Origin: an uncultured Bacilli bacterium
GTDB taxonomy: Bacteria > Bacillota_I > Bacilli_A > RFN20 > DUOF01
Reading direction: 5' to 3'
Assembly (NCBI GenBank): GCA_944363575.1
Contig: CALVUJ010000010.1
Coordinates: forward strand, 19,817 to 83,816
Length of the DNA stretch: 64,000 nucleotides
In this document: in pieces, positions 1-26,300 of the stretch
How the letters are laid out: each line of letters begins with the position of its first letter
Position numbering within the stretch: position 1 is the stretch's first letter
Made by a program: the position numbers and the translations under genes
The notes under the pieces: model-generated
What the model was told of the DNA's origin: nothing
Databases searched by the model: none
What the model saw: only the letters and a program-made list of their open reading frames with translations

Positions 1-2003
1 ATGGTAATCTTTTAGAGGAGATAGGTAGTTATGAGCTTGTTATTTGTTATATAGATGATGCGGGTAATGAAGCAATTAGTAAAGAGTTGACTATTAATGT
101 AACTGATAATGTTAGTCCAGTTATTGAGGTTAGTAATGTAGAGATAGAGTTGAATGAGCTTGTTGAATTGAAGGGCTTTGCAAGTGATAATTATGGGTTG
201 GAGAAAGATGGTAGTAATATTATTAAAGAAAAGTATATTAATAGTACTAGTTGTTCTGCTTTGATTGATGGTAGTGTAGTTTCTTGTGATGGGATTGTAG
301 TTGGAGAAGGTAATTATAATTATAGATTTTTACAAACTGGTGTTTATACTTTTGTGTATGTAGTTAGTGATCTTTCTAGTAATTCTAGTGAAGTTAGTCA
401 AGTTATTACGGTGTTAGATAGCAAGGGGCCAGAGATGGAAGCTGTTGGAAGTAGTAGTTTGGATATAGAGATTGTAGATAAAAATCTTATTCAAAATACG
501 GAGGTTTATTATCCTACTAGTTTTGATGTTGGAGATAATTTAAATGTAGCAGTTAATTATGTGGGATTGTATTCTATAGATAGTGTTGGAAATGAGTATA
601 AAGTTGATGATTCTTCTTATTTAGTAAGTGATAGTGGGACATCTATAATTTATAAGTTTGATAAGATTGGTTTATATTTAGTTAAATTTAGTTCTATTGA
701 TAATAATGGTAATGTTTCTAACTTTTATTATGAGATTACCGTGAGTGATAAGAGTAATCCTGTGATTAAAAATATTTCTGATGGCGAGATTATAAGTATT
801 AATTATGGTGAAATATTAGATGTTCAGGAACATATTATTAATGCTTATGGGGTAATTGCTAGTGATAATTATGATTCTAGTGTTAAGATTGGTTATGAGA
901 TTAAGACTAGTGTGGATCATAGTTATGAGGTTGTGTTAATTGCTAAAGATAGTTCTAATAATGAAAGTGTTGTTGTAGTTTATGTTGATGTTGTTGATAA
1001 AATTGCTCCAGTTTCAGGTACACTTGATATGTCAGCGACAACAAATGAAAGATTTTTCTATTTTAATGTTGTAGGGGGTTCTGATAATTCTTCTGATTGG
1101 TGGCATGAGTATAGAGTTAATGGTGGAGAATGGGTGCGTTATACGGTAGATAGTAATATAGAATTTGGAGAAGGATTAAATCAAAATGTTGAGGTTTGTG
1201 TTAGGGCTAAAGATGCTTTTAATAACATAAGTTTAAATTCTTATTGTAAGAGTGTATTGGTTGATACTAAGGTTCCTGTTGTTAGTGGTGTTAGCAATGG
1301 TGATATTGTTAATACTGAAGTAGTGGTTGATGTTAGCGATGAAAATTTAGATACTGTTCAAATTTGGAAAGATGATGTTTTGTTGGATGTAACGTTACCT
1401 GTAACTTTTACAGAAGCAGGGGCATATGTGGTAGAGGCTAAGGATACTATTGGTAATGTGTCAATCGTTAACTTTATGATTAATATGGATGTTTATATGG
1501 ATGTAGTTAATGATATAAATGCTAGTGAGCTTTCAATTACTTCTATTGAGTTTGATAAGAGATTATTGGTGGAAGCAGATATTGAGTATGTAGATAATGG
1601 GACTTCAAATATTAAAGTTAGTTTGGCTAATATTAAAGTGAATGCTGATGATATGGTGTATGTTTTAGGTGTGGTTCCTAATACGAATAGTGTGTTTGTA
1701 ATGTTTAGTGTTAATGGTGCTAATGTTGCTAATTATGCTGATGGTGTGCAACTTTTGAGTGCTGGGGGATCTTTTAAAGAGGGAGTTAATAATGAAGATT
1801 GCTTTTTGAAATTTAATGATAGTTATTTTGCTTATGTTGCAATTAAGGAGAGTGTAGGTGAACAGCAAGTTGTTGTAAGTAGTGAGGAGGAAGGTAAAAA
1901 TAGTGAGTGGATGAAGATAGCATTAATTGTTGTAGGTTCGTTGTTAGTTGTTTTGATGGGATATCAAATTATTAAGTTTAAAAGAAGAATTCGTGCAGCG
2001 TAA
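1..2003 (+). CDS. Repeat-rich surface protein, 5'-truncated at window edge. Repeated ~95-aa Ig-like modules each begin with D-x-S/K-x-P-V-I. C-terminal TM helix plus basic tail (KIALIVVGSLLVVLMGYQIIKFKRRIRAA).
   Basis: The reading frame is open from position 3 with no upstream stop, while the ORF track starts it at TTG 87. The protein shows modular repeats and a C-terminal hydrophobic anchor with a KRRIR tail. Confidence 0.6.
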   Translation, partial: GNLLEEIGSYELVICYIDDAGNEAISKELTINVTDNVSPVIEVSNVEIELNELVELKGFASDNYGLEKDGSNIIKEKYINSTSCSALIDGSVVSCDGIVVGEGNYNYRFLQTGVYTFVYVVSDLSSNSSEVSQVITVLDSKGPEMEAVGSSSLDIEIVDKNLIQNTEVYYPTSFDVGDNLNVAVNYVGLYSIDSVGNEYKVDDSSYLVSDSGTSIIYKFDKIGLYLVKFSSIDNNGNVSNFYYEITVSDKSNPVIKNISDGEIISINYGEILDVQEHIINAYGVIASDNYDSSVKIGYEIKTSVDHSYEVVLIAKDSSNNESVVVVYVDVVDKIAPVSGTLDMSATTNERFFYFNVVGGSDNSSDWWHEYRVNGGEWVRYTVDSNIEFGEGLNQNVEVCVRAKDAFNNISLNSYCKSVLVDTKVPVVSGVSNGDIVNTEVVVDVSDENLDTVQIWKDDVLLDVTLPVTFTEAGAYVVEAKDTIGNVSIVNFMINMDVYMDVVNDINASELSITSIEFDKRLLVEADIEYVDNGTSNIKVSLANIKVNADDMVYVLGVVPNTNSVFVMFSVNGANVANYADGVQLLSAGGSFKEGVNNEDCFLKFNDSYFAYVAIKESVGEQQVVVSSEEEGKNSEWMKIALIVVGSLLVVLMGYQIIKFKRRIRAA

Positions 2004-3133: not shown

Positions 3134-3613
3134 ATGTTAAGTGGTGGAGAGAAAGCTAAGGTTAAAAACATTATAGTTGCTATCAAAGGAGAATATTCAA
3201 AAATATTTGATATTATTAGCGATGAAAAAAAAATAAAAAAGCAAGATAATATCAATACTTTATTTGCAAGTAGTAAAAAAGTTTTTATGTGGATGGCTCA
3301 TTTGCCTACGACACTTATTAATTCTAGTTCAATCTTATCTCGAGGGTTTGATACTTTGCAAGAGGCTAATCGGTTTGCTAGTATAAGTGCAGGGGATAAG
3401 AAAAAGGTAGAATTGCTTATGAATTCGATAAAAGTTATTCCTAGTATTCAAGAGGAGTTAATTAAGCAAATTAATGATGATAATAATTATCGAGAGAGAG
3501 TTTTAAAAGATATTATGGATGAGTTAGGGATTGAAAATCCTAATAAAAAAAAGAAAAAAAGAGACGAGAAGTTTAATTCGATGTCATTTGATGATTGGTT
3601 TAATGATGATTAA
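3134..3613 (+). CDS. Hypothetical Lys-rich protein (159 aa).
   Basis: ATG 3134 follows GAGGT. A rho-independent terminator follows the gene. Confidence 0.45.
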   Translation: MLSGGEKAKVKNIIVAIKGEYSKIFDIISDEKKIKKQDNINTLFASSKKVFMWMAHLPTTLINSSSILSRGFDTLQEANRFASISAGDKKKVELLMNSIKVIPSIQEELIKQINDDNNYRERVLKDIMDELGIENPNKKKKKRDEKFNSMSFDDWFNDD

Positions 3614-3638
3614 GAAACGTTTTGTTTCTTTTTTTTTA
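3612..3638 (+). terminator. Rho-independent terminator (GAAAC-gtttt-GTTTC plus T9).
   Basis: Hairpin plus T-run read directly from the sequence. Confidence 0.6.
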
Positions 3639-14804: not shown

Positions 14805-15285
14805 TCATTAAGACCTCCTTATCTTTATACTCTTTAATAATTTTATCAACATCTGCTATTTTTACATGGGGATATATTTTGCCATTTACGGTAACAACAG
14901 GTGCTAAAGAACAGGCTCCTACACACCTTAAGATATCAATAGAAAATAACCCATCTTCTGTTGTTTCTCCTGGTTTTATTTTTAATTTATTACAAAATTC
15001 ATCAATTATACCTTGAGTTCCTTTTACATAGCAGGCTGTTCCAAAACAAGTGCTAATAACATATTTTCCTTTAGGTTTTAAAGAGAAGTAAGAATAGAAA
15101 GTTACAACACCATATATTTCACTTACTGGTATATTAAGGGCTTCTGCTACTATTTGTTGTACTTCTAAATCAATGTATCCAAATTTATTTTGAATATCAC
15201 TTAATATCATCATTAATGGGGTTTCCATGTTTTTTCTTTTTTCTATAATATTGTATATTTCTTCTTTGCTTTTACTACTTATCAT
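14791..15285 (-). CDS. hydC: NuoE-like [2Fe-2S] subunit (HydC/HndA).
   Basis: The protein carries the thioredoxin-like ferredoxin signature CxxxxC...CxxxC (GTACYVKG...RCVGACSLAPV). Start ATG 15285 is preceded by GAGGTG. Confidence 0.8.
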   Translation of the reverse strand: MISSKSKEEIYNIIEKRKNMETPLMMILSDIQNKFGYIDLEVQQIVAEALNIPVSEIYGVVTFYSYFSLKPKGKYVISTCFGTACYVKGTQGIIDEFCNKLKIKPGETTEDGLFSIDILRCVGACSLAPVVTVNGKIYPHVKIADVDKIIKEYKDKEVLMNENS

Positions 15286-15305
15286 TAATAATTTCACCTC
15301 TTTTT

Positions 15306-15320
15306 TGATTTTATCATAAA
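15306..15320 (-). promoter_or_regulatory. Candidate extended -10 promoter (TGATAAAAT on the minus strand) for hydCBA.
   Basis: The reverse complement of 15301-15420 contains tttTATGATAAAATc about 35 nt upstream of the hydC RBS. Confidence 0.35.
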
Positions 15321-15436
15321 ATGATTTTTTGTAGGTGTTTATGAGGCTTAAAAATAAAAAAAATATTGGTAGTTGTTAAGATATGGTCTTAATTTAGAAA
15401 AAAATGAATATTTATTAATGTAAAAATAAGGAAATT

Positions 15437-15445
15437 TGCTATAAT
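15437..15445 (+). promoter_or_regulatory. Extended -10 promoter TGcTATAAT for mgtC, divergent from the hydrogenase operon.
   Basis: TGCTATAAT lies at 15437-15445. The RBS GAGGTG is 7 nt upstream of GTG 15467. Confidence 0.5.
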
Positions 15446-15466
15446 TTAGGGGCGTGAGGTGATAGT

Positions 15467-16165
15467 GTGGATGCTTGGATAGATTCGTTTTTAGATAATA
15501 GTTTTGAGCTATTAGTTTTGGTGAGAATTTTGTTATCTTTTTTGTTAGGCTTTATTTTGGGATTTGAAAGAGAACTTTATAAAAGGCCAGCAGGGTTAAG
15601 AACGCACATTTTAGTATGTATGGCATCGTGTCTTATAATGCTTGTTTCTATGTATGGGTTTGGTGAAAAGGGAGATCCTTCTAGATTGGCTGCTCAAGTT
15701 GTTAGTGGTATTGGTTTTTTAGGAGCTGGTGCGATTATTAGAGGAGATAAGGATATTAAAGGTATTACTACTGCGGCGACAATTTGGATGAGTGCGATGA
15801 TAGGTTTAGCATGTGGTAATGGGTTTTATTTTGGAGCTATTTTGTGTGCTGTTGGCACGTTGGGTATTTTAACTGTTTTTAGAAGATTTGAAATGAGAAT
15901 GGCTGCATCTAGCAAATATAAATCAAAGGTGTTTTTTACTATAGATTTTGGTGATGATGCGATGGAAAATATTAGAGGGTATTTGAAGGAGTGTAATTTG
16001 TTAATTAGCGATATTAATTCTAAAGTAAGTATTGTTGATGATAAAAAGGTTATGAAAGTAACTATTACTTTTGAGAGGGATTGTAGTTTGGATAGTTTGT
16101 ATGAGTTTGTAGATAAAGTGGAGAAAGAGTATAGTCCTGTGGAGCTTAAGTTATCTCATGAGTAA
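15467..16165 (+). CDS. mgtC: MgtC/SapB family membrane protein.
   Basis: The N-terminus LLGFILGFERELYKRPAGLRTHILV is the MgtC signature. Confidence 0.8.
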   Translation: MDAWIDSFLDNSFELLVLVRILLSFLLGFILGFERELYKRPAGLRTHILVCMASCLIMLVSMYGFGEKGDPSRLAAQVVSGIGFLGAGAIIRGDKDIKGITTAATIWMSAMIGLACGNGFYFGAILCAVGTLGILTVFRRFEMRMAASSKYKSKVFFTIDFGDDAMENIRGYLKECNLLISDINSKVSIVDDKKVMKVTITFERDCSLDSLYEFVDKVEKEYSPVELKLSHE

Positions 16166-16221
16166 TGAAAAGTTTTTGGTAGAAGCTTAATAAAATAATA
16201 AGAAAGAGAAGGTGTATGGAT

Positions 16222-16947
16222 ATGGCACAATACATTTATGGGAGGAATGTTATTGTTTCAAGATTGAAAGAAGCGAAAGATATTGATGAAATTTATTTGT
16301 TAGATTCTTTTAAAGATAAAAGTATTTTAAGTTTGATTAATGATAATAAAGTTAAGGTTGTTTGGTGTAAGAAGAGTAGATTGGATAGTTTAGTGGGGAA
16401 TGAGTTTCATCAAGGTATTGTGGCTAAAGTGCACACTTATGAGTATTATGATTTTAATAAGTTAATTGAAGGATTAAAAGATAAAGAGAAACCTTTATTG
16501 GTTATGTTAGATGGGGTTGAGGATCCACATAATTTAGGGGCTATTCTTAGAAGTTGTGAGGCTATTGGTGTTGATGGGGTTATTGTTTCTAAGAGGCATA
16601 CGTGTCCATTGAATTCAACGGTAGCGAAGACTTCTACTGGTGCTATTGAGTTAGTGAAAGTAAGTGAAGTTTCTAATCTTAATAATGCGATTAGGAAATT
16701 AAAAGATGAAGGTTATTGGATTGTTGGAGCAGAGGCTAATAATTCAGTTGATTATCGTGAAGTTAATTATAATGATAAGATAGTGCTTGTTGTAGGGTCT
16801 GAAGGTAAGGGTATTTCTAAGTTAGTGTTAGATAATTGTGATTTTAAGGTTAGGCTTCCAATGGTTGGTAAGGTTAATTCTTTGAATGTTTCAGTAGCGT
16901 GTGCTGTTCTTTTATATCAAGTTTACAATAATAGATCTCCTTTATAG
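16222..16947 (+). CDS. rlmB: 23S rRNA (guanosine-2'-O)-methyltransferase, TrmH/SpoU family (YacO/RlmB).
   Basis: The N-terminus MAQYIYGRNVI is RlmB-like, and the SpoU methylase motifs ILRS and VVGSEGKGIS are present. The gene sits at the expected yacO position before sigH. ATG 16216 is also possible as the start. Confidence 0.8.
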   Translation: MAQYIYGRNVIVSRLKEAKDIDEIYLLDSFKDKSILSLINDNKVKVVWCKKSRLDSLVGNEFHQGIVAKVHTYEYYDFNKLIEGLKDKEKPLLVMLDGVEDPHNLGAILRSCEAIGVDGVIVSKRHTCPLNSTVAKTSTGAIELVKVSEVSNLNNAIRKLKDEGYWIVGAEANNSVDYREVNYNDKIVLVVGSEGKGISKLVLDNCDFKVRLPMVGKVNSLNVSVACAVLLYQVYNNRSPL

Positions 16948-16958
16948 GGGGGATTTTA

Positions 16959-17528
16959 TTGTTTCTAAACGAAGTAAGTGATGATTGGCTTCTTTGTTTA
17001 TCTAGGGAAGGTAATCAAGATGCGATTGATTTGCTATATGAGAGATATAGTAAGTTTTTGTATGGGATTATTAATGAGTTTTTTAAAAGTAAATTGGTGT
17101 ATGTAGATTATAAGGATATGTTTCAAGAATGTATTATTGTTTTTCTTGGCTGTGTACAGAAGTATGATGAGGATGTGGGATGTTTTTATTTTTTTGTGAA
17201 GATGGCAGTGGAGAGGAGGCTTATTGATAATCTTGCTAAGATAAGTAAAGTTAAAATGGTGGCTTCATTAGATGAGCTTATTTATGATAATGGTAATGAG
17301 ACTTTGCTAGATTATGTAGCGGAGTCTAGTGATGGTGAATACAACTGGTTATATGAGGAGTTAGTGGTAAGAATTGATGAGGAGAGTAGGCGTATTGTTG
17401 ATTTGAAGATGGTTGGTTATGCGTATCATGAAATAGCTTTGATTTTGAATACTAGTAAGCAGTCTGTATATCGGAGGGTAGTTAAAATTAAAAACATTCT
17501 AAAAGATATAATAGAAAAAATTGACTAA
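16959..17528 (+). CDS. sigH: Sigma-70 family sigma factor, SigH-like.
   Basis: Region 2 (YERYSKFLYGIINEF) and a region-4 HTH (YHEIALILNTSKQSVYRRV) are present. The gene lies in conserved synteny between yacO and rpmG-secE-nusG. TTG start. Confidence 0.7.
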   Translation: MFLNEVSDDWLLCLSREGNQDAIDLLYERYSKFLYGIINEFFKSKLVYVDYKDMFQECIIVFLGCVQKYDEDVGCFYFFVKMAVERRLIDNLAKISKVKMVASLDELIYDNGNETLLDYVAESSDGEYNWLYEELVVRIDEESRRIVDLKMVGYAYHEIALILNTSKQSVYRRVVKIKNILKDIIEKID

Positions 17529-17578
17529 AGATAAAATTTATGATAAAGTTTAACGGAATGAAATAGGTGATTGATAAA

Positions 17579-17728
17579 ATGAGGGAAAAAGTTATACTTA
17601 TTTGTAGTAAGTGCTTATCTAGAAATTATACTTCATCTAGGAAAAAATATGATGTTAATAAGAAGATCGAAATATTGAAGTATTGTCCAAAGTGTAATGA
17701 ACATACACTTCATAAAGAGAGTAAGTAA
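17579..17728 (+). CDS. rpmG: 50S ribosomal protein L33. This 49-aa gene is absent from the ORF track.
   Basis: The translation MREKVILICSKCLSRNYTSSRKKYDVNKKIEILKYCPKCNEHTLHKESK has the CxxC...CxxC L33 zinc-ribbon signature. The position immediately before secE is canonical. Confidence 0.85.
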   Translation: MREKVILICSKCLSRNYTSSRKKYDVNKKIEILKYCPKCNEHTLHKESK

Positions 17729-17739
17729 GGAGGGTTAAC

Positions 17740-17967
17740 ATGAAAAAGTTTTTTAGGGCTATCGGTCGTTTTTTTAAGAAGATAGGTTATGCGATTGCTA
17801 GTTTCTTTGTTTTAACTTTTAGAGAAATGAAAAAAGTTAGATGGCCAGATAAGAAATTGATGATTGATGCTTCTAAAATCGTGTTAGCTTTTATTTTTTT
17901 GTTTGGGTTGTATATAGTTTTTGATGATTTTATTATTGCTAAGTTGTTACAATGGATTAATTATTAG
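17740..17967 (+). CDS. secE: Preprotein translocase subunit SecE.
   Basis: RBS AAGGAGGG is present. The protein is 75 aa with a single C-terminal TM helix, in the synteny position before nusG. Confidence 0.9.
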   Translation: MKKFFRAIGRFFKKIGYAIASFFVLTFREMKKVRWPDKKLMIDASKIVLAFIFLFGLYIVFDDFIIAKLLQWINY

Positions 17968-17984
17968 AGTGGGAGTTGAAAGAA

Positions 17985-18539
17985 ATGGAAAATGTAGAGA
18001 AAAAATGGTATGTTGTTAATACGTATTCAGGGCATGAAAATAAAGTAAAGATTAATCTTGAGAGAAGAATTGAGTCTATGAATATGCAAGATTATATTTT
18101 TAGGGTTATAGTAGCAGAGCATCCTGTTCCTGTTTTAAAAGATGGAATGCCTACGGATAAGATTAAGATGAAGAATACATATCCTGGGTATTTGTTTGTT
18201 GAAATGTATATGACAGATGAAGCATGGTATGTAGTTCGTAATACTCCTGGTGTTACAGGGTTTATTGGTTCTAGTGGTAGGGGTGCTAAGCCATTCCCGG
18301 TTCCTAAAGAGCAAATTGAGTCTGTGTTAAAGGGTATAGGAGTAGTAGAAGAGGGTATGTACTCTGATTATAAAGTTGGGGATGTTGTGAAAATTCTTCG
18401 TGGGCCTTTGATGGGAAGTGAAGGAATAATTCAAGAAGTAGATGTTACTAAGAGTATTGTTAGAGTTAGTTCAGTATTTTTTGGTAGAGAGACATCGGTG
18501 GAAGTTGATTTTGCTGATGTAGATAAGGTTAATAAATAA
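17985..18539 (+). CDS. nusG: Transcription termination/antitermination factor NusG.
   Basis: The NGN domain (KKWYVVNTYSGHENKV) and a C-terminal KOW motif (VGDVVKILRGPLMGSEGIIQEV) are present. Alternative TTG start at 17976. Confidence 0.9.
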   Translation: MENVEKKWYVVNTYSGHENKVKINLERRIESMNMQDYIFRVIVAEHPVPVLKDGMPTDKIKMKNTYPGYLFVEMYMTDEAWYVVRNTPGVTGFIGSSGRGAKPFPVPKEQIESVLKGIGVVEEGMYSDYKVGDVVKILRGPLMGSEGIIQEVDVTKSIVRVSSVFFGRETSVEVDFADVDKVNK

Positions 18540-18809
18540 AAGTTAATGAAAAGCATTAAATTTTAAGTAAAGTAGTATTTGTGGTGTTTTGTTTGTAGAA
18601 AGAATAATTATAAGTTTTGGTTATAATTATTTTTTTTATTATATTTTTATAAATTATTTATAATTAATTTTTTTAATATATTTATGTTGTTTTTTAGTCT
18701 TTAAATGATTTCTCGTGATATTTTTTGTGATGTGATGATTGGATTTGTAAAGAAGAAAAACATGAATATTAGGTGGGATGAAAGTATAATAATTGTTTTT
18801 AAATATATT

Positions 18810-18822
18810 GTATCAATGATAC
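18810..18822. promoter_or_regulatory. Perfect 6-1-6 palindrome GTATCA-a-TGATAC immediately upstream of the first gene of the inserted cassette. Candidate operator for the HTH antitoxin.
   Basis: Read directly from the sequence. It overlaps the RBS/start region of the 18829 ORF. Confidence 0.35.
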
Positions 18823-18828
18823 GGAGAG

Positions 18829-19185
18829 ATGGTTAATCTGATTAGCACTGGTGTTAGTGTAAGTAAAGTTGTAACGGATGAGATAATATATAAAATAGAG
18901 AAGTATGATTTTATTGTAATACCAAGGGAGAAGAATGTGGATTTTTTTAGGAAGTATCGATTGAATAAGACTAAAGTTAGAGAGATGAAATGGCAAGATT
19001 ATGTTGATGAGGTAGAGGATTATGATGGATTTAAACATGGATTAGATTTTCTTGTTATATTTGAGAAAGAAGTGAAGTTAACTAATTTTCATGGTGTAGA
19101 TGAGTATATAACTATTTATGTTAAAGTTAAAAATGTAGAGGGAAGGAAAGTGCCGGTTGTTTCTTTTCGTAAGAGTGAAGGGTAA
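18829..19185 (+). CDS. Small protein (118 aa), candidate MqsR-like RelE-fold mRNA interferase toxin.
   Basis: The gene is first in a three-gene cassette, directly upstream of an MqsA-like antitoxin (toxin-first order as in mqsRA). The protein ends in ..GLDF...YITIYVKV...VPVVSFRKSEG, resembling the MqsR C-terminal region (..GLDFDG...YLKITVI...LIVSFKEK) as I recall it. Confidence 0.5.
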   Translation: MVNLISTGVSVSKVVTDEIIYKIEKYDFIVIPREKNVDFFRKYRLNKTKVREMKWQDYVDEVEDYDGFKHGLDFLVIFEKEVKLTNFHGVDEYITIYVKVKNVEGRKVPVVSFRKSEG

Positions 19186-19206
19186 TTTATAGAGGAGGAT
19201 AGTGTG

Positions 19207-19572
19207 ATGGAAAAGGTTAGATGTGTGTATTGTGATTGTAAAAGAGATTATGAAGTGATTGATGAAGAGTATGTATATGTAGAGGATGATATGGAAGTAA
19301 GATATGGTGGGAAAAAAGCAATTTGTAATGTGTGTAAACATGAGATAATGATTGATGAAATTGAGGATTATAATCAAGTGCAGTTTGAAAAAGCATATAA
19401 AGAAATGAATGGTATAATAAGTGTTGAGGTAATTAATCAAATAATGGAAAAATATAATATTGGTAAAAGGTCGTTATCTTTGGTTTTAGGGCTAGGAGAG
19501 ATAACTATTACAAGATATTTGGATGGGTATGTGCCTACGAGTAAGAATTCTAAATATTTAAAAAAATATTAA
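19207..19572 (+). CDS. MqsA-like antitoxin. It has an N-terminal zinc ribbon (CVYC...30 aa...CNVC) plus a C-terminal XRE-type HTH.
   Basis: The CxxC-x30-CxxC spacing is identical to the MqsA Zn site. The HTH is IMEKYNIGKRSLSLVLGLGEITITRYLDG. RBS GAGGAGG is upstream, and GTG 19204 is an alternative start. Confidence 0.65.
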   Translation: MEKVRCVYCDCKRDYEVIDEEYVYVEDDMEVRYGGKKAICNVCKHEIMIDEIEDYNQVQFEKAYKEMNGIISVEVINQIMEKYNIGKRSLSLVLGLGEITITRYLDGYVPTSKNSKYLKKY

Positions 19573-19595
19573 AGTCACCTGAAGAATATTATGGG

Positions 19596-20171
19596 ATGTT
19601 AATGAAGAATGGGAAACTTATTTCTTCATTAGCTTTTAAGAAGTCTAAAGAGCGTTGTGAAGAGATATTAGGTATTGATAATAATGATCGTACTATTATT
19701 GATATAGGTAATTATATAATGAGTAAATATGATGAAACTACACCACTAGCATTACAAAAATTACTATATTATATACAAATGTTTGGATTAACTTTTTTGG
19801 GAAGACCTATATTTAATAATCAATGTAAAAGATGGGATTATGGGCCGGTATATAGTGAAGTTTATTTTGAGTTTAAAAATATTCGTTTTGAATCTAGGAT
19901 ACATGAGTCAAGCGAATTATATGTAGATTATGAGGCTAAGCGGTTAATTGATTCAGTATTGAAGGCCTTTGCTTGTTATAGTGGCAATACTTTATCATAT
20001 TTTACATATTGTGAAGATCTTTGGAAGAAGGCTAGTGAGCAAGGATTAGAGGTTATATCAAGAGAATTAATAAGAGAGCAAGGTAATAAGATAAATAATT
20101 TTGAAGATATAAGTTTGTATAGTGAAAGTACGTTTAATAAGTATAAAAATAATTGTTTAGGAGATTTATAA
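19596..20171 (+). CDS. Panacea (DUF4065) domain protein, PanA/SocA-type putative antitoxin.
   Basis: The hallmark motifs LQKLLYY and W-YGPV..VY.EFK are present in TPLALQKLLYYIQMFGLTFLGRPIFNNQCKRWDYGPVYSEVYFEFK. Confidence 0.65.
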   Translation: MLMKNGKLISSLAFKKSKERCEEILGIDNNDRTIIDIGNYIMSKYDETTPLALQKLLYYIQMFGLTFLGRPIFNNQCKRWDYGPVYSEVYFEFKNIRFESRIHESSELYVDYEAKRLIDSVLKAFACYSGNTLSYFTYCEDLWKKASEQGLEVISRELIREQGNKINNFEDISLYSESTFNKYKNNCLGDL

Positions 20172-20376
20172 TAAAAGTTACAAGTGATTGTTAAGAATAT
20201 ACATCTTAATTGTGCAGTATAATTTGATGAAAAGTTAGATTTTTTGTTTTGATACTTGCAATTAGTTTTAGGATGTAGTATGATAACACACGTGTATGAG
20301 AATACACTTTTGCGCAGTGGGAAGAATTTGATTCTGTTTGGACCACAGCCTTAAAAGTTAGAAGGAGGTAAAATAT

Positions 20377-20790
20377 ATGTCTAAGAAAATCGCAAAAGTT
20401 GTTAAGATTCAACTTCCAGCAGGGGAAGCAAAACCAGGAGCAGCATTAGCAAGTGCAGGTATTGTTATGCCTAAGTTCTGTTCAGAGTTTAATGAGAAAA
20501 CAGCTGATAGGAGAGGTGATATTGTTCCTGTAATTATCACTGCTTATGAAGATAAGTCATTTGATTTTGTAATTAAGACAAGTCCTGTTACTAATATGAT
20601 CAAGAAAGCTTGTAATATTAAGAGTGGGTCTAGTAATCCTAAGAAAAATAAGGTTGCTAAGCTTAGTAAAGAGGATGTTAGAAAGATTGCAGAATATAAA
20701 ATGCCAGATTTAAATGCGAATGATATTGATGCTGCAATGAAGATTGTTGCAGGTAGTGCTCGTAGTATGGGCATTGAAGTAGAAGAATAA
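20377..20790 (+). CDS. rplK: 50S ribosomal protein L11.
   Basis: The N-terminus MSKKIAKVVKIQLPAGEAKPG is L11-like, and the 137-aa length fits. Position before rplA is canonical. RBS GGAGG is upstream. Confidence 0.9.
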   Translation: MSKKIAKVVKIQLPAGEAKPGAALASAGIVMPKFCSEFNEKTADRRGDIVPVIITAYEDKSFDFVIKTSPVTNMIKKACNIKSGSSNPKKNKVAKLSKEDVRKIAEYKMPDLNANDIDAAMKIVAGSARSMGIEVEE

Positions 20791-20838
20791 GTGGAAGGAT
20801 AAACTCGTCCGTTAGAACCACAAGGAGGATAGAAAGAT

Positions 20839-21522
20839 ATGAATAAAAGAGGAAAAAAATATGTAGAGGCTAGTAAGTTAGTCGAAAAGAATAAAGTTTA
20901 TAGTGCTAGAGAAGCATGTGAGTTAGTTAAGAAGACTAGTGTTACAAAGTTTGATGCTAGTGTTGATGTAGCTTTCAATTTAAATATTGATACTCGTTAT
21001 GCTGAACAACAAATTAGGGGTGCTGTAGTTTTACCTAATGGGACAGGTAAAACAAAGACTGTTTTAGCTATTACTAATAAGGTAGAGGAAGCTAAGAGTG
21101 CTGGTGCTGATTTTGTTGGTGGTAAGGAAATGATTGAAAAGATTCAAAAAGAAAATTGGTTTGGATTTGATGTTATTGTTGCTACTCCTGATATGATGGG
21201 AGAGTTAGGTAAGATTGGTAGGGTTTTAGGTCCTAAAGGTTTAATGCCTAATCCTAAGACTGGTACTGTATCAATGGATATTGCTAAGGCTGTTAAAGAT
21301 ATTAAGGCTGGTAAAGTTGAGTATCGTGCTGATAAAGAAGGTAACATTAATGTTACTATTGGTAGAGTTTCTTTTGATGCAGAAAAGTTATATGAAAACT
21401 TTAAGACTATTTATGATGTTGTTGTTAAGGCTAAACCTAGTGCTGTTAAGGGAACTTATATGAATAACTTAACAATTACTACAACAATGGGTCCTAGTAT
21501 TAAAGTTGATGTAAACTTCTAA
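20839..21522 (+). CDS. rplA: 50S ribosomal protein L1.
   Basis: 227 aa with L1 family conservation throughout. RBS AAGGAGG. Confidence 0.95.
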
Positions 21523-21528
21523 TTTAGT

Positions 21529-21557
21529 TGACAAGTGTATAAAATAAAAGTAAAATA
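21529..21557 (+). promoter_or_regulatory. Sigma-A type promoter TTGACA-17-TAAAAT for the rplJL operon.
   Basis: The sequence matches the consensus exactly. Confidence 0.7.
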
Positions 21558-21564
21558 ATGATGC

Positions 21565-21700
21565 TTATTACCAAAGACAGCAACGGTCAAGGGACTTAAT
21601 AAGGTTGCCGAGGTGAACATGAATTGTTTATTTCCCTGTGTGCTTTTGGTAAGAATACAGGGTTTTTATTTGGGTAAGTAAGCTTATTATAAAAAAAGAA
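21565..21700 (+). promoter_or_regulatory. Ribosomal protein L10 leader with an intrinsic attenuator hairpin (CCCTGT...ACAGGG plus T5 at 21635-21668).
   Basis: A ~150-nt untranslated leader lies between the promoter and rplJ. It contains GACAGCAACGG and a terminator-like hairpin, the typical Firmicutes L10(L12)4 autoregulatory leader. Confidence 0.6.
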
Positions 21701-21716
21701 AGAGAGGTGTGAGTTA

Positions 21717-22211
21717 GTGAACAAGACGATTATTGAACAAAAAGAGAGTTTAGTTAATCAAGTTAGTGATGAGATGAAAAATTCTGCTTCAACAATAGTA
21801 GTAGAGTATCGTGGTTTAACTGTTGAAAAGATTAGTGAACTTAGAAGAAAGCTTCGTGAAGAAGATGCTTCATTAAAGGTTTATAAGAATTCAATTGTTT
21901 CTAGAGCTGCGAATAAGGTTGGGTATAGTGAGTTAGACAATGAACTTACTGGGCCTAATGCAATTGTTTTTTCAAAGAAAGATTCAACTAGCGCTGCTAA
22001 ATTATTAACAAAGTTTGCTAAAAGAAACGAAGAGTTAGTAGTTAAGGGTGGTATTGTTGAAGGTAAGTATGTTGATGCTAAAGAAATGAAGGTAGTAGCT
22101 ACATTACCTAGTAGAGAAGGATTGTTATCAATGTTACTTAGTTGTTTACAAGCTCCAATTAGGAACTTTGCATGTGCTGTAAAAGCTGTTGCCGATCAAA
22201 AGAATAATTAA
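21717..22211 (+). CDS. rplJ: 50S ribosomal protein L10.
   Basis: GTG start after AGAGAGG. L10 family, 164 aa. Confidence 0.9.
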   Translation: MNKTIIEQKESLVNQVSDEMKNSASTIVVEYRGLTVEKISELRRKLREEDASLKVYKNSIVSRAANKVGYSELDNELTGPNAIVFSKKDSTSAAKLLTKFAKRNEELVVKGGIVEGKYVDAKEMKVVATLPSREGLLSMLLSCLQAPIRNFACAVKAVADQKNN

Positions 22212-22232
22212 TAAGGAAAGGGGAAATGAAAA

Positions 22233-22610
22233 ATGGCAAAAATTAATACAACTGATTTAATTGCAAGTTTAAAGGAAATGACAATTTTAGAATTAAATGA
22301 TTTAGTTAAAGCAATCGAGGAGGAATTTGGTGTAACTGCTGCTGCTCCTGTAGCTGTAGCTGCTGCTGCTCCTGCTGAAGAAGAAGCTGCTAAAGGACCA
22401 AGCGAAGTAACTGTTTACTTAAAGGCTGTTGGTGCTTCTAAGTTAGCTGTTGTTAAGGCTATCCAAGCTATTACTGGTTTAGGTTTAGGAGATGCTAAGA
22501 AATTAACTGATGTTGTTCCTAGTGTAATTAAAGAAAAGATTTCACCTGCTGCTGCTGAAGAAGTTAAAGCTAAGTTAGTAGAAGCTGGTGCAGAAGTAGA
22601 AGTTAAGTAA
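22233..22610 (+). CDS. rplL: 50S ribosomal protein L7/L12.
   Basis: An Ala-rich hinge ([16 protein letters not shown]) and a conserved C-terminal domain are present. Confidence 0.95.
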
Positions 22611-22633
22611 TTAACTTTTATTTAAAACAAAAA

Positions 22634-22660
22634 GAGAGCTCATTTATTGAGCTTTTTTTA
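22634..22660 (+). terminator. Rho-independent terminator (AGCTCA-tttat-TGAGCT plus T7).
   Basis: Hairpin plus T-run read directly from the sequence. Confidence 0.7.
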
Positions 22661-22689
22661 TTTATTGTTATAATGATGGTGGTGGTTCT

Positions 22690-23277
22690 ATGTCGCATTA
22701 TTTTGTTAGTGATGATAGTGTTAAGCGTAATAAAAGAAATATTTACTATTCTTTTAATAATATTAGTTTTAAGTTTGTGAGCGATAATGGGGTTTTTTCT
22801 AAGAGTGAAGTAGATGAGGGTAGTGATATTCTTTTAAAGAGTTATTTGAATGGTGGTAAAGTTGGTAGAGTGCTAGATGTAGGAGCGGGTATTGGGGTGC
22901 TAGGTATCGTTATTTCTAGGGTTAATGATTGTGAAGTGGATATGTTAGAGATTAACGAAAGAGCAGTAGAGTTATGTAAAGAGAATATTAAAGTTAATAA
23001 GGTTAATTGTAATATTTATTTGAGTGATATGTATGAAAAAGCAAACGGAAAGTATGATGTTATTGTTAGTAATCCTCCGATTAGGGCGGGTAAGCAAGTG
23101 GTGTTTTCTATATTAGAGGATAGTTATAAGTATTTGAATAGTGGTGGAGAGTTGTGGGTTGTTATTAGGAAGAAACAAGGTTCTAGTAGTGCTAAAAAGA
23201 AGATAGAAGAAGTTTTTGGTAATTGTAGTATTGTTAAAAGAGATAAAGGATTTTATATTCTTAAGGCTGTTAAATAA
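22690..23277 (+). CDS. Class I SAM-dependent methyltransferase, RsmC/YbxB small-domain type.
   Basis: Motifs VLDVGAGIGVLGIV and VSNPPIRAGK are present. The position between rplL and rpoB matches Bacillus ybxB. Confidence 0.75.
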   Translation: MSHYFVSDDSVKRNKRNIYYSFNNISFKFVSDNGVFSKSEVDEGSDILLKSYLNGGKVGRVLDVGAGIGVLGIVISRVNDCEVDMLEINERAVELCKENIKVNKVNCNIYLSDMYEKANGKYDVIVSNPPIRAGKQVVFSILEDSYKYLNSGGELWVVIRKKQGSSSAKKKIEEVFGNCSIVKRDKGFYILKAVK

Positions 23278-23299
23278 AAAATATTTTAAATAAAGATAA

Positions 23300-23328
23300 T
23301 TGACACTTGGTTTAAAGGATGTTAAACT
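23300..23328 (+). promoter_or_regulatory. Candidate promoter TTGACA-17-TAAACT upstream of rpoB.
   Basis: Read directly from the sequence. Confidence 0.45.
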
Positions 23329-23388
23329 ATAATGTCTAATTGTCTTTTTTGTGCCCAAAAAGAGACAAATTTGAAAGAGGTGAATGCT

Positions 23389-26300
23389 GTGGCAATAAAC
23401 AAAGTTGGCCAAACCACAGAAAGAAAAGATTTTTCTAAGATTAGTGGTTCATTGCCTATCCCTAACCTAATTGAGGTTCAACAAAAGTCTTATGAATGGT
23501 TTATTAATGAAGGGATAATTGATGCATTTAACGATATTTATCCTATAGAAAGTCCAAATGGGAACTTCGTTATGGAATTCGTTAATTGTAGGTTTGAGAA
23601 ACCTAAGTATGATATTGAACAATGTAGAGATCGTTATCTTACTTATGCGTATCCGATGAGAGCTACACTTCGTTTAATCAATAATGAAACTGGAGAAATC
23701 AAAGAGAGTGATGTTTTCTTTGGTGAGATGCCTGCGATGAGTGATTCAGGTACTTTTGTCATTAGTGGTAACGAAAAGGTTATAGTTTCTCAACTTGCTA
23801 GATCTCCAGGAGCATATTTTAATTATGTTAGAGATGAGAAAACTGGTAAGTTAATTGCGAGTGGAGAAATCCATCCAATTAGAGGCGCATGGTTAGAATT
23901 CGTTTCTGATGCACATGATGTGTTGCATGTTAGAATTGATAGGGAAAGAAAGATTCCAGCGACTGTTTTACTTAGAGCAATCGGACTTGAGAGTAATGAT
24001 GATATTACTAATTTATTTGGTGAGAGTATTTATTTAAATAATACTTTTGAAAAAGATTCTACAGAAAATGCTAGAGATGCTTTGATTGAAATTTATACTA
24101 AATTAAGACCTGGTGAGCCTGCGACTGAAGAAGGTTCTAGGAATTTAATGTTTCAAAAATATTTTGATAAAAAGAGATATGATTTAGCTAAGGCTGGTAG
24201 ATTTAAGATTAATAATAAATTAAGTGCTTATTTTAGATTACAAGGTAAGGTTGTAGCAGAGCATTTGATTGATTGTAATGGGGAAGTTATCTATGAGAAG
24301 GGAACTTTGATGACTAAGGAGAAAGTTGATCATTTAAGGAGTCTTAAGTTCTTTGAAAATGGTGCTCATAGTGTTACTTTAAACGTTAATAAAAACCTTT
24401 ATTTAGATGGGGAAGGCGAAGATAGCGTTAATGTTGTTTATGTTTATACAGATGAGACACAAACTAATGTTATGAAAATTATTGGTAATGATTGTTCATG
24501 TAGTGTTAGGAATTTAAATGTTCCTGATATTGTTGCTACATTCTCTTTCTTTTTGAATACTTTTGATGGGAATTTAGTTAATGATGATATTGATCATTTA
24601 GGTAATAGAAGAATTAGATCTGTTGGTGAACTTATTCAAAATCAGTTTAGAGCAGGTCTTTCAAAGATGGAAAAAGGAGTTAAGGAGAAGATGTCGATTT
24701 CTGATACTACTTCAATTACTCCACAAAATTTAACAAATATTAGGCCTTTAAGTGCAGCACTTAGAGAGTTTTTTGCTTATTCTCAGTTATCACAATTTAT
24801 GGATCAAACTAATCCATTATCTGAGTTAGCTAATAAAAGAAGAATTAGTGCTTTAGGTCCTGGTGGATTGAATAAGGATCGTGCTGGTGTTGAAGTTCGT
24901 GATGTTCATTATTCTCACTATGGTAGAATATGTCCTATTGAAACTCCAGAAGGTGCTAATATCGGACTTATTTCAAACTTGGCTACGTATGCTAAGTTAG
25001 ATGAAAATGGGTTTATTCAAACTCCTTATAGAAGGGTTGATAAGAAAACTTGTAGGGTGTTAGAAGAGTGTGATTATTTAACTGCTGATCAAGAGAATGA
25101 TTTTACAGTAGCACAAGCTAATATTAATATGGATAAAGATGGTTATATTTTAGATGAGAGAGTTGTTGCTCGTCATCGTGGTGAGAATATCTTGATTAGA
25201 AAAGAAGATGTTGATTATGTGGATGTTTCACCTAAGCAATTAATTTCTATTTCTACATCTTGTATTCCTTTCCTAGAGAATGATGATGCTCACCGTGCTT
25301 TGATGGCTGCGAACATGCAACGTCAAGCAATTCCTCTTGTTAAGCCTGATTCTCCTTATGTTGGTACAGGTGTTGAAAGAAAGATAGCACATGATTCTGG
25401 TTCATCTTTATTAAGTAAGCATGATGGTGTTGTTACTTATGTAGATGCTAAAAAAGTTAAGGTTGAAAGTAAAGATGGTGAACATGTTTATAATCTTAAG
25501 AAGTTTGGTAGTAGTAACCAAGGTACTTGTTTAAATCAAATTCCTAGTGTTGTGGAAGGGCAAAAGGTTAAAGTTGGTGATGTTTTGGCTGATGGTGGAG
25601 CTATTCAAAATGGTGAGTTAGCTTTAGGGCAAAATGTTACAGTAGCTTTTATGACATGGGATGGATACAATTATGAGGATGCTATTATCATGTCTGATCG
25701 TTTAGTTAAAGATGATGTTTATACTTCTATTCATATTGAGGATTATAAAATAGAGTGTAGAGATACAAGGTTAGGTCCTGAAGAAATTACTAGAGATGTG
25801 CCTAATGTTGGTGAGGATGCAAAGATAAATCTTGATGCTAGGGGTATTGTTATTCCTGGAGCAGAAGTTAAAGAAGGAGATATTTTAGTAGGTAAGATTA
25901 CACCAAAAGGGCAAAGTGAACCTACTCCTGAAGAAAAATTATTAATGGCTATTTTTGGCGAGAAAACTAAGGAAGGTAAAGATAAGTCATTACGTGTTCC
26001 TCATGGTGGTGCTGGTATCGTTTTAGATGTTAAGTATTTCTCTCGTAAGAATGGTGATGAGTTAGAGCCAGGAGTTAATGAGATGATTCGTGTTTATGTA
26101 GCACAGAAGCGTAAGATATCTGAAGGAGATAAGATGGCAGGGCGTCATGGTAATAAAGGTGTTATTTCACGTATCATGCCTCAAGAAGATATGCCTTTCT
26201 TGCCAGATGGAACACCTGTTGATATTATGTTAAATCCACTTGGCGTTCCTTCTCGTATGAATATTTGTCAAGTATTAGAGATGCATTTAGGGTACGCTGC

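Follow-up and report, generated by a model that had tools for sequence, protein, structure and literature searches.

A probable disrupted MqsR:PanA-type module in the nusG–rplK spacer of an uncultured Bacilli bacterium

In the 64,000-nucleotide stretch of DNA from an uncultured Bacilli bacterium that was analysed here (the window, meaning that whole stretch), the spacer between nusG and rplK appears, with a probability that we place at about 0.85, to hold a horizontally acquired type II MqsR:PanA cassette whose antitoxin gene was split by a one-base deletion and which is probably decaying. The domain composition of the module, the conserved pairing of its genes and the disruption of the antitoxin gene in this copy are matters of direct observation. 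Modules of this type have already been described and dissected experimentally, and the window locus is an ordinary, possibly decaying, member. The initial annotation had proposed an MqsRA-like pair, and in that proposal the MqsR ancestry of the toxin and the order of the genes still stand, whereas the unit does not, since the homologues are MqsR:PanA modules with a single antitoxin of ~320–335 aa. The annotation of the locus is best corrected from a canonical mqsRA pair to a disrupted MqsR:PanA module.

The genes on either side of the cassette, nusG (17976–18539) on its 5′ flank and rplK (20377–20790) on its 3′ flank, are both on the + strand, and the interval between them holds, on that same strand, three ORFs in a row of 118, 122 and 191 aa. 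The window has a gene order in common with six related contigs (MgtC, SpoU methylase, sigma factor, L33, SecE, NusG, L11, L1, L10, L7/L12), and in those contigs the spacing between nusG and rplK is only 180 nt, with a terminator-like hairpin included in it. When the window was compared with the six contigs, homology ended at 18539, the nusG stop codon, and returned at ~20278, and the cassette is therefore an insertion of ~1.74 kb (18540–20277, + strand), set between the nusG stop and the conserved leader/promoter region of rplK. In a promoter/terminator scan there was no terminator-like site left in 18400–20500. A search for repeats detected no direct repeats at the flanks that might betray the mechanism of insertion, no integrase or tRNA gene lies near the cassette, Rfam had no match inside it, and PADLOC had none for any of its three ORFs. 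The presence of the cassette within the otherwise invariant nusG–rplK junction indicates that such cassettes can settle in core ribosomal-protein gene clusters. The homologues closest to it in genomes come from Anaeroplasmataceae and from gut MAGs of Bacilli, and the family is spread over the Bacillota. One close relative of the module (locus L002) has SIR2, ThsB-TIR and Fic genes as its neighbours, i.e., a defence-island setting.

The toxin gene and its family

The first gene of the cassette (18829–19185, + strand; 118 aa) was identified through family profile homology as a divergent member of the MqsR family of RelE-like RNases, and its true start may be an in-frame CTG at 18838. A word-indexed search with the window toxin produced only three relatives; an exhaustive profile search gathered a toxin family of 124 cluster representatives at E<1e-3, most of which measure 110–150 aa. 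The Pfam profile PF15723 (MqsR_toxin) matched 36 of 62 aligned members of this family at E≤0.1, and a single member, P0124, passed the gathering score (27.3 bits, above the cut-off of 26.2). An hhalign comparison of the profile of the toxin family (93 members) with that of canonical MqsR (42 sequences) had a probability of 94.8% and an E of 5e-8, and the alignment covered 90 columns, nearly the whole of MqsR; the E. coli MqsR reference sequence was checked and is identical to chain B of 3HI2. The window toxin alone had no Pfam, NCBIfam or PADLOC match, and none to PF15723 even at E≤1 (cut-off 26.2 bits), so that its kinship with MqsR rests on its family. Single-sequence phmmer searches of PDB sequences with the 118-aa and 122-aa ORFs gave no MqsR or MqsA match, and the toxin family profile gave nothing meaningful against PDB sequences.

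The AF2 model of the toxin (pLDDT 85.5) has the element order H-E-H-H-E-H-E-E-E, which, save for a short extra helix (67–70), is consistent with that of MqsR. A Foldseek search of the PDB with this model had no match at E≤0.001, and MqsR (3HI2_B) was absent from the top 50; the RelE-like BrnT stood at rank 8 of this non-significant list, with a prob of 0.69. Among viral structures, the Foldseek matches were limited to two similar small proteins from phages, with functions that are unknown or misnamed. With no significant Foldseek match, the evidence for a RelE/MqsR fold comes from profile homology and the order of the secondary-structure elements instead of from a structure match.

The profile–profile alignment also permitted the comparison of individual residues. 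Three residues that are invariant in MqsR, Y81, K83 and S94, have conserved counterparts in the toxin family (Y at 95%, K at 100% and S at 100%), and all three are kept in the window toxin, as Y97, K99 and S112. At the position of MqsR K96 the family has a histidine (97% conserved) and the window an arginine, R114, while K56 is not conserved in the family (D60 in the window) and Q68 falls in a gapped region that is not alignable in either the family or the window. Thus, of the four residues that the initial annotation had listed as catalytic in MqsR (K56, Q68, Y81 and K96), and on which the toxicity of the E. coli protein depends, only Y81 has its equivalent here. A similar division emerged for the sequence blocks that had been said to be shared with the C-terminus of MqsR: I-Y-V-K and V-S-F-R-K are indeed in register with Y81-L-K83 and V-S-F-K96, whereas GLDF is not, for MqsR G36–F39 aligns at ~44–47 of the window toxin and the GLDF of the window (71–74) is near MqsR 62–65. 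Since the two blocks do not line up, and the corresponding residues in close homologues are GCDP or GYDP, the GLDF likeness was dismissed as coincidental.

These sequence comparisons support the membership of the 118-aa protein in a divergent branch of MqsR (113–141 aa), with the consensus ...R.KN..F...Y.L...ILL.L...DF...YIK...ISFHE. The branch falls mostly under the Pfam MqsR threshold but has a wide distribution in the Bacillota and occurs in some phages, and many of its copies are probably unannotated.

The antitoxin gene and its frameshift

After a gap of 18 nt, the toxin gene is followed by the 5′ fragment of the antitoxin gene (19204–19572, + strand; 121–122 aa), which, based on TIGR03830 and a structural model, encodes a four-Cys zinc-binding domain (ZBD) and most of an XRE-type HTH; its start is likely ATG 19207, 7 nt after GGAGGA. 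Much of what had been noted of this part of the locus was borne out: the 118-aa and 122-aa ORFs are present on the + strand at 18829–19185 and 19204–19572, the toxin gene does come first, and the CxxC-x30-CxxC motif, reported to have the spacing of E. coli MqsA (given as C3/C6/C37/C40), was found at C7/C10/C41/C44 (C6/C9/C40/C43 counted from ATG 19207) and is invariant in an 80-homologue alignment. The NCBIfam MqsA profile, TIGR03830, matched the 122-aa ORF at 2.3e-12 and PF15731 (MqsA_antitoxin) matched it at 4.5e-4, both below their cut-offs (46.8 bits versus 61.8, and 20.8 bits versus 30, respectively). In a Foldseek search of the PDB, the model of the 121-aa fragment (AlphaFold, pLDDT 92.2) matched E. 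coli MqsA 3GN5 best (E 4e-6, prob 1.00), with 3HI2_A (the N-terminal domain of MqsA, prob 0.99) and 3FMY (the HTH, rmsd 1.8 Å over 51 columns) next, in agreement with the MqsA-like zinc domain and HTH that had been ascribed to this ORF.

The assumption that the 122-aa ORF was the whole antitoxin fared less well, as it is the front of a frameshifted gene of ~321 aa whose remainder (19596–20171) lies beyond the region first annotated. The TIGR03830 match takes in the zinc domain and the greater part of the HTH (profile positions 1–108 of 127), and with the ORF ending at position 108 of 127 the HTH domain is incomplete, the rest of it (ILKSPEEYY...) being in another frame. The 3′ part of the gene (19554–20171, + strand), consisting of a linker and a Panacea (DUF4065) domain, is in the -1 frame, where the listed ORF of 191 aa occupies 19596–20171. 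This frame is open from 19554, within the last part of the 122-aa ORF, and the 191-aa ORF matched PF13274 (SocA_Panacea) at 1.7e-15, with a score (58.4 bits) above the cut-off of 25.7. One profile, phrog_10390 (299 positions), extends over both ORFs, with the 122-aa ORF at 17–108 and the 191-aa ORF at 130–291. Neither ATG 19596 nor ATG 19602 is preceded by a Shine-Dalgarno-like sequence, although the neighbouring genes have strong ones, and a hairpin at 19598–19633 (dG -16.7 kcal/mol, z -2.8) covers AUG 19602.

Comparison of the DNA with that of relatives located the one-base deletion, and the consequent shift to the -1 frame, at an A7 run (19560–19566, + strand). The window has TTAAAAAAATATT at this site and is one base shorter than the intact relatives, which have TTAAAGAAAATATT or TTAAAGAAAATTTT (L-K-K-I-L), and the 122-aa fragment stops at a TAA that was created by the frameshift. 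Joining SKYLKK to ILKSPEEYY... gives a protein of ~321 aa that aligns end to end with its homologues, the five closest of which (63–71% identity) have an identical KNSKYLKKILKSPEEYY straight across the break. A search with the fused 321-aa query produced 278 homologues, and nearly all of the best 120 of these are single proteins of 316–378 aa, at ~75–100% query coverage; three are shorter or partial, many carry PF15731 together with PF13274, and none is split. More than 100 homologues are single proteins of ~320–335 aa. The same held true in the loci that were fetched from reference genomes, since one unsplit antitoxin ORF (262–378 aa) was present in 80 of 80, each with the ZBD, HTH and Panacea in one polypeptide, which is not the case in the window as assembled. 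Judged from these alignments, the 122-aa ORF is the front part of a ~321-aa ZBD-HTH-Panacea (PanA-type) antitoxin gene, and the window copy is, by descent, a disrupted member of PanA. The pairing of the two genes is also conserved, as an ORF of the toxin family is directly upstream, on the same strand, of 73 of the 92 antitoxin ORFs in the fetched loci (gap -22 to +180 nt), and several of the antitoxin ORFs without an upstream toxin begin at the end of a contig.

Operator, condition of the copy and alternative readings

Just before the ribosome-binding site of the toxin gene is a perfect palindrome, GTATCA-A-TGATAC (18810–18822), and this sequence, GTATCAATGATAC, is a candidate operator for the ZBD-HTH protein. 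The 64-kb window has no other exact copy of it. Fourteen related loci have the identical 13-mer upstream of the module, seven of them as a pair of copies 55–56 nt apart, and when the four closest relatives were aligned their paired palindromes were found to flank a TTGACT-17-TATGAT promoter. A pair of palindromes around a promoter is the arrangement expected of an autorepressing HTH antitoxin, and the conserved GTATCA-N-TGATAC pair provides a testable candidate operator for this group of antitoxins. The distal palindrome of the window is degenerate (6 of 13 positions mismatched), and no consensus-like + strand promoter upstream of the window toxin was found in a promoter scan.

Other changes in the window copy affect the proteins themselves. 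Among the 93 members of the toxin family, the window toxin is alone in being without four residues after E52, in the conserved ‘ILLxL’ helix, and it is also the only one with an R at the 97%-conserved H114. In the antitoxin, three of 28 conserved residues are changed in the Panacea part and none of 24 in the N-terminal part (the closest relatives have 0–1 changed), and the C-terminal part has extra in-frame deletions. Overall, the Panacea part is no more diverged than the N-terminal part, the C/N identity ratio being 0.82–1.14, versus 0.64–1.07 among relatives. An old pseudogene with a faster-diverging Panacea part was rejected, as these ratios show no excess, and the decay would therefore be recent, or else the 191-aa ORF is still used. 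Because of the two unique lesions of the toxin and the loss of one operator palindrome, the cassette is most likely a weakened or decaying copy, at best working as a minimal MqsRA-like pair.

From what is established for the family, a plausible course of events in an intact module can be outlined. Gene 1 would produce a small mRNA endoribonuclease of the MqsR family, with a RelE fold, and gene 2 an antitoxin of three domains, at whose N-terminus a four-Cys zinc-binding domain would bind and neutralise the toxin. The central XRE-type HTH is predicted to dimerise and repress the operon, with the GTATCA-N-TGATAC palindromes around the promoter as its likely operator, and the C-terminal Panacea domain would be accessory, possibly sensory. 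In the window, the sequence shows that the one-base deletion, after codon ~120, leaves a 121-aa ZBD-HTH fragment without the end of the HTH, and a Panacea domain in a separate frame without a ribosome-binding site of its own. The 121-aa fragment probably still neutralises the toxin, since the ZBD alone or ZBD-HTH sufficed in B. fungorum, the only system with this architecture to have been dissected. This natural truncation mirrors the laboratory ZBD-HTH without Panacea, and the strain could provide a natural test of what Panacea adds.

It is unlikely, in our estimation, that an error of sequencing or assembly accounts for the frameshift and that the window has an intact ~322-aa ZBD-HTH-Panacea gene in an ordinary functional MqsR:PanA pair. 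An artefact would be in keeping with the position of the break in a 7-base homopolymer, where one added base restores the full-length protein, and with the overall lack of excess divergence in the downstream part; in addition, the second assembly with the frameshift, Logan ERR4096492, which is 100% identical to the window over 3 kb (3048 of 3048 nt, A7 included), may be from the same reads. However, 33 other homopolymers of 7–10 bases in the window sit in intact long ORFs, the neighbouring genes are normal in length relative to those of relatives, and the relatives read AAAGAAAA, not A8, so that the plain loss of a G gives A7. The further lesions, i.e., the toxin deletion, H114R, the three conserved Panacea residues and the extra in-frame deletions of the C-terminal part, likewise argue against an artefact. 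If the deletion is real and recent, it could conceivably have turned a three-domain PanA into a free-standing MqsA-like antitoxin and an orphan Panacea ORF, a snapshot of MqsA/PanA interconversion with slippage at the A7 run possible, but we regard this as quite unlikely. Were it true, antitoxins of the MqsA and PanA types would change into each other through loss or gain of the Panacea ‘sensor’ domain, and A7 slippage at a low level could yield both forms, thus tuning whether triggering of the toxin is possible.

The A AAA AAA tract (19560–19566) also raised the possibility of a -1 ribosomal frameshift or transcriptional-slippage site, at which the short antitoxin and some of the full-length antitoxin would both be made. 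The zero frame reads X XXY YYZ = A AAA AAA, a -1 slip leads into the conserved ...LKKILKSP..., and the stable hairpin described above is downstream. Known frameshift-stimulating structures are 5–9 nt from the slippery site, and slippage at A7 is usually a few percent only. The hairpin of the window begins ~31 nt past the tract, which is too far, and the tract is missing in all four of the close relatives examined, each of which is in frame, i.e., the recoding signal is not conserved. Programmed frameshifting was set aside on account of the relatives without a slippery tract and the distance of the hairpin, and we hold it to be very unlikely. A genuine three-gene system, in which an MqsR-like toxin would be accompanied by an MqsA-like antitoxin standing on its own and by a Panacea protein that is translated separately, is scarcely credible. 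Both ORFs are open, the second ATG is 24 nt after the stop of the first ORF, and stand-alone Panacea antitoxins and stand-alone MqsA proteins do exist in nature (PMC8832971, PMC10440598), but no homologue is split among the best 120 of 278 or in the 80 genome loci, the stop is inside the HTH domain (profile position 108 of 127), and the amino-acid sequence over the break is conserved as one chain. Moreover, the Panacea ORF, unlike the neighbouring genes, has no Shine-Dalgarno, and there is the hairpin over AUG 19602.

Comparison with known toxin–antitoxin systems

As a split MqsR:PanA cassette, the locus retains several similarities to E. coli MqsR/MqsA (3HI2, 3GN5, 3FMY): the toxin gene precedes the antitoxin gene, a CxxC-x30-CxxC zinc domain precedes an XRE HTH, the model of the 121-aa fragment fits MqsA best, and the toxin family is homologous to MqsR, with the equivalents of Y81, K83 and S94 kept. 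The promoter of E. coli mqsRA has two palindromes, and the two palindromic operators of the relatives of the window recall it, although the operator sequence, GTATCA-N-TGATAC, is a different one. The locus further differs from the E. coli system in that the ancestral antitoxin was ~321 aa in length with an added Panacea domain, the scores of the window proteins are under the curated MqsA and MqsR cut-offs, MqsR K56 has no conserved counterpart, and the place of K96 is taken by His in the toxin family and by Arg in the window.

Kurata et al. 2022 (PNAS) reported that, among the partners of Panacea antitoxins that can be identified, MqsR-like toxins are the commonest (n=90; PMC8832971). The window has in common with these PanAT systems a Panacea/DUF4065 domain past the Pfam threshold and a toxin of the kind that is the commonest among annotated PanT partners, and the toxin-upstream order also occurs in them. 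In many PanATs it is Panacea itself that neutralises the toxin, whereas in the window the zinc domain is the putative neutraliser and the Panacea part is detached. The role envisaged for the domain in the window is also unlike that in SocAB, in which Panacea is a proteolytic adaptor.

The MqsR:PanA system of Bacillus fungorum, characterised by Ernits et al. 2023 (PNAS), has an antitoxin with the architecture ZBD-HTH-Panacea (PMC10440598). In this system, the ZBD or ZBD-HTH neutralises the toxin while Panacea or HTH-Panacea does not, and a Y97 substitution in the toxin abolishes toxicity; its authors proposed that Panacea is a sensor (PMC10440598). By architecture the window cassette is the same, having a toxin-first operon, a toxin of the MqsR family, and an MqsA-like zinc domain followed by an HTH and, C-terminally, by Panacea, and it would presumably also resemble the B. 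fungorum system in having a zinc domain that neutralises the toxin and an HTH that autoregulates the operon. What distinguishes the window copy from that of B. fungorum is its antitoxin gene, in which the loss of one base past the recognition helix of the HTH has caused a split, and its toxin, which belongs to a short (113–118 aa) sub-branch and carries lesions that are unique to it.

Candidate operator and translation signals of the cassette

The window has a single copy of the palindrome GTATCA-N-TGATAC, at 18810-18822, and the related locus L002 has two (3519-3531 and 3574-3586). Paired copies with a spacing of 55-56 nt were found in seven related loci (L002, L003, L004, L005, L011, L012 and L015), and in the four closest loci, those that were aligned, both copies bracket a TTGACT-17-TATGAT promoter; the distal copy has been lost from the window. 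The palindrome probably serves as the operator for this group of antitoxins.

Close relatives also have a strong Shine-Dalgarno sequence, GGAGGAGG, ~33 nt upstream of the annotated ATG of the toxin gene (L002, about 3590-3635). An in-frame CTG located 8-9 nt past it is common to the relatives and the window (18838; region 18823-18841), and the intervening codons are homologous. The weak CTG codon may be the toxin start, and the N-terminus as annotated may be incorrect. At the Panacea ORF, the detached 3' part of the antitoxin gene, the start codon AUG 19602 is enclosed by a stable RNA hairpin (19598-19633), and the whole 74-nt stretch containing it folds at -16.7 kcal/mol (z -2.8), a predicted structure that would hinder independent initiation there.

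Possible transcription from nusG to rplK

In relatives, a terminator-like hairpin, GAAGGAGAATTTGCTTCTTCTTTTTT, lies immediately 3' of nusG (L093, 3821-3850, compared with window 18540-18600). The window is without this hairpin, and no terminator-like sites were found in 18400-20500, so the secE-nusG transcript may extend through the cassette as far as rplK. Upstream of rplK is a ~75-nt element, GTGTATGAGAATACACTTTTGCGCAGTGGGAAGAATTTGATTCTGTTTGGACCACAGCC (20278-20352), with 65/75 identity in related contigs and no Rfam match; it is a possible leader of the L11 operon. The known L10 leader was detected at 21553-21677 (69.4 bits). Across 15000-24000, GC skew on the coding strand is very strong (+0.3 to +0.8 in 300-nt windows), and its sign reverses near 15300, where the genes change strand; overall G+C is about 30%.

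Relatives in bacteria and possibly phages

Among intact relatives of the module, the closest is L002 (1-8987), which lies on a JGI contig of 57.8 kb in a defence-island-like neighbourhood of SIR2_2, ThsB-TIR, Fic/RhuM and DUF1016 genes. A conserved 72-aa ORF 3' of the antitoxin in L002, L004 and L005 is missing from the window. The Bacilli MAG RGIG4026 encodes an intact ZBD-HTH-Panacea homologue (L006, 3001-3966; L016, 2501-3466) with no toxin-family ORF upstream of it, and yet the GTATCA-N-TGATAC palindrome is present ~470 nt upstream; this homologue is perhaps an orphan antitoxin, or it may pair with some other partner. Farther downstream in L006 (6913-6966), a fragment of an MqsR-like gene was called.

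The best structural matches of the toxin's AF2 model in BFVD (TM 0.54-0.60) were two small phage proteins, A0A8S5T535 (124 aa) and A0A4Y5FFB7 (125 aa), the latter from Lactobacillus phage SAC12B, and one of the two is named "HTH-type transcriptional regulator". Together with a phrog_34059 match (1e-5), these similarities suggest that this toxin branch is present in phages too, where it is mis-annotated or unannotated.
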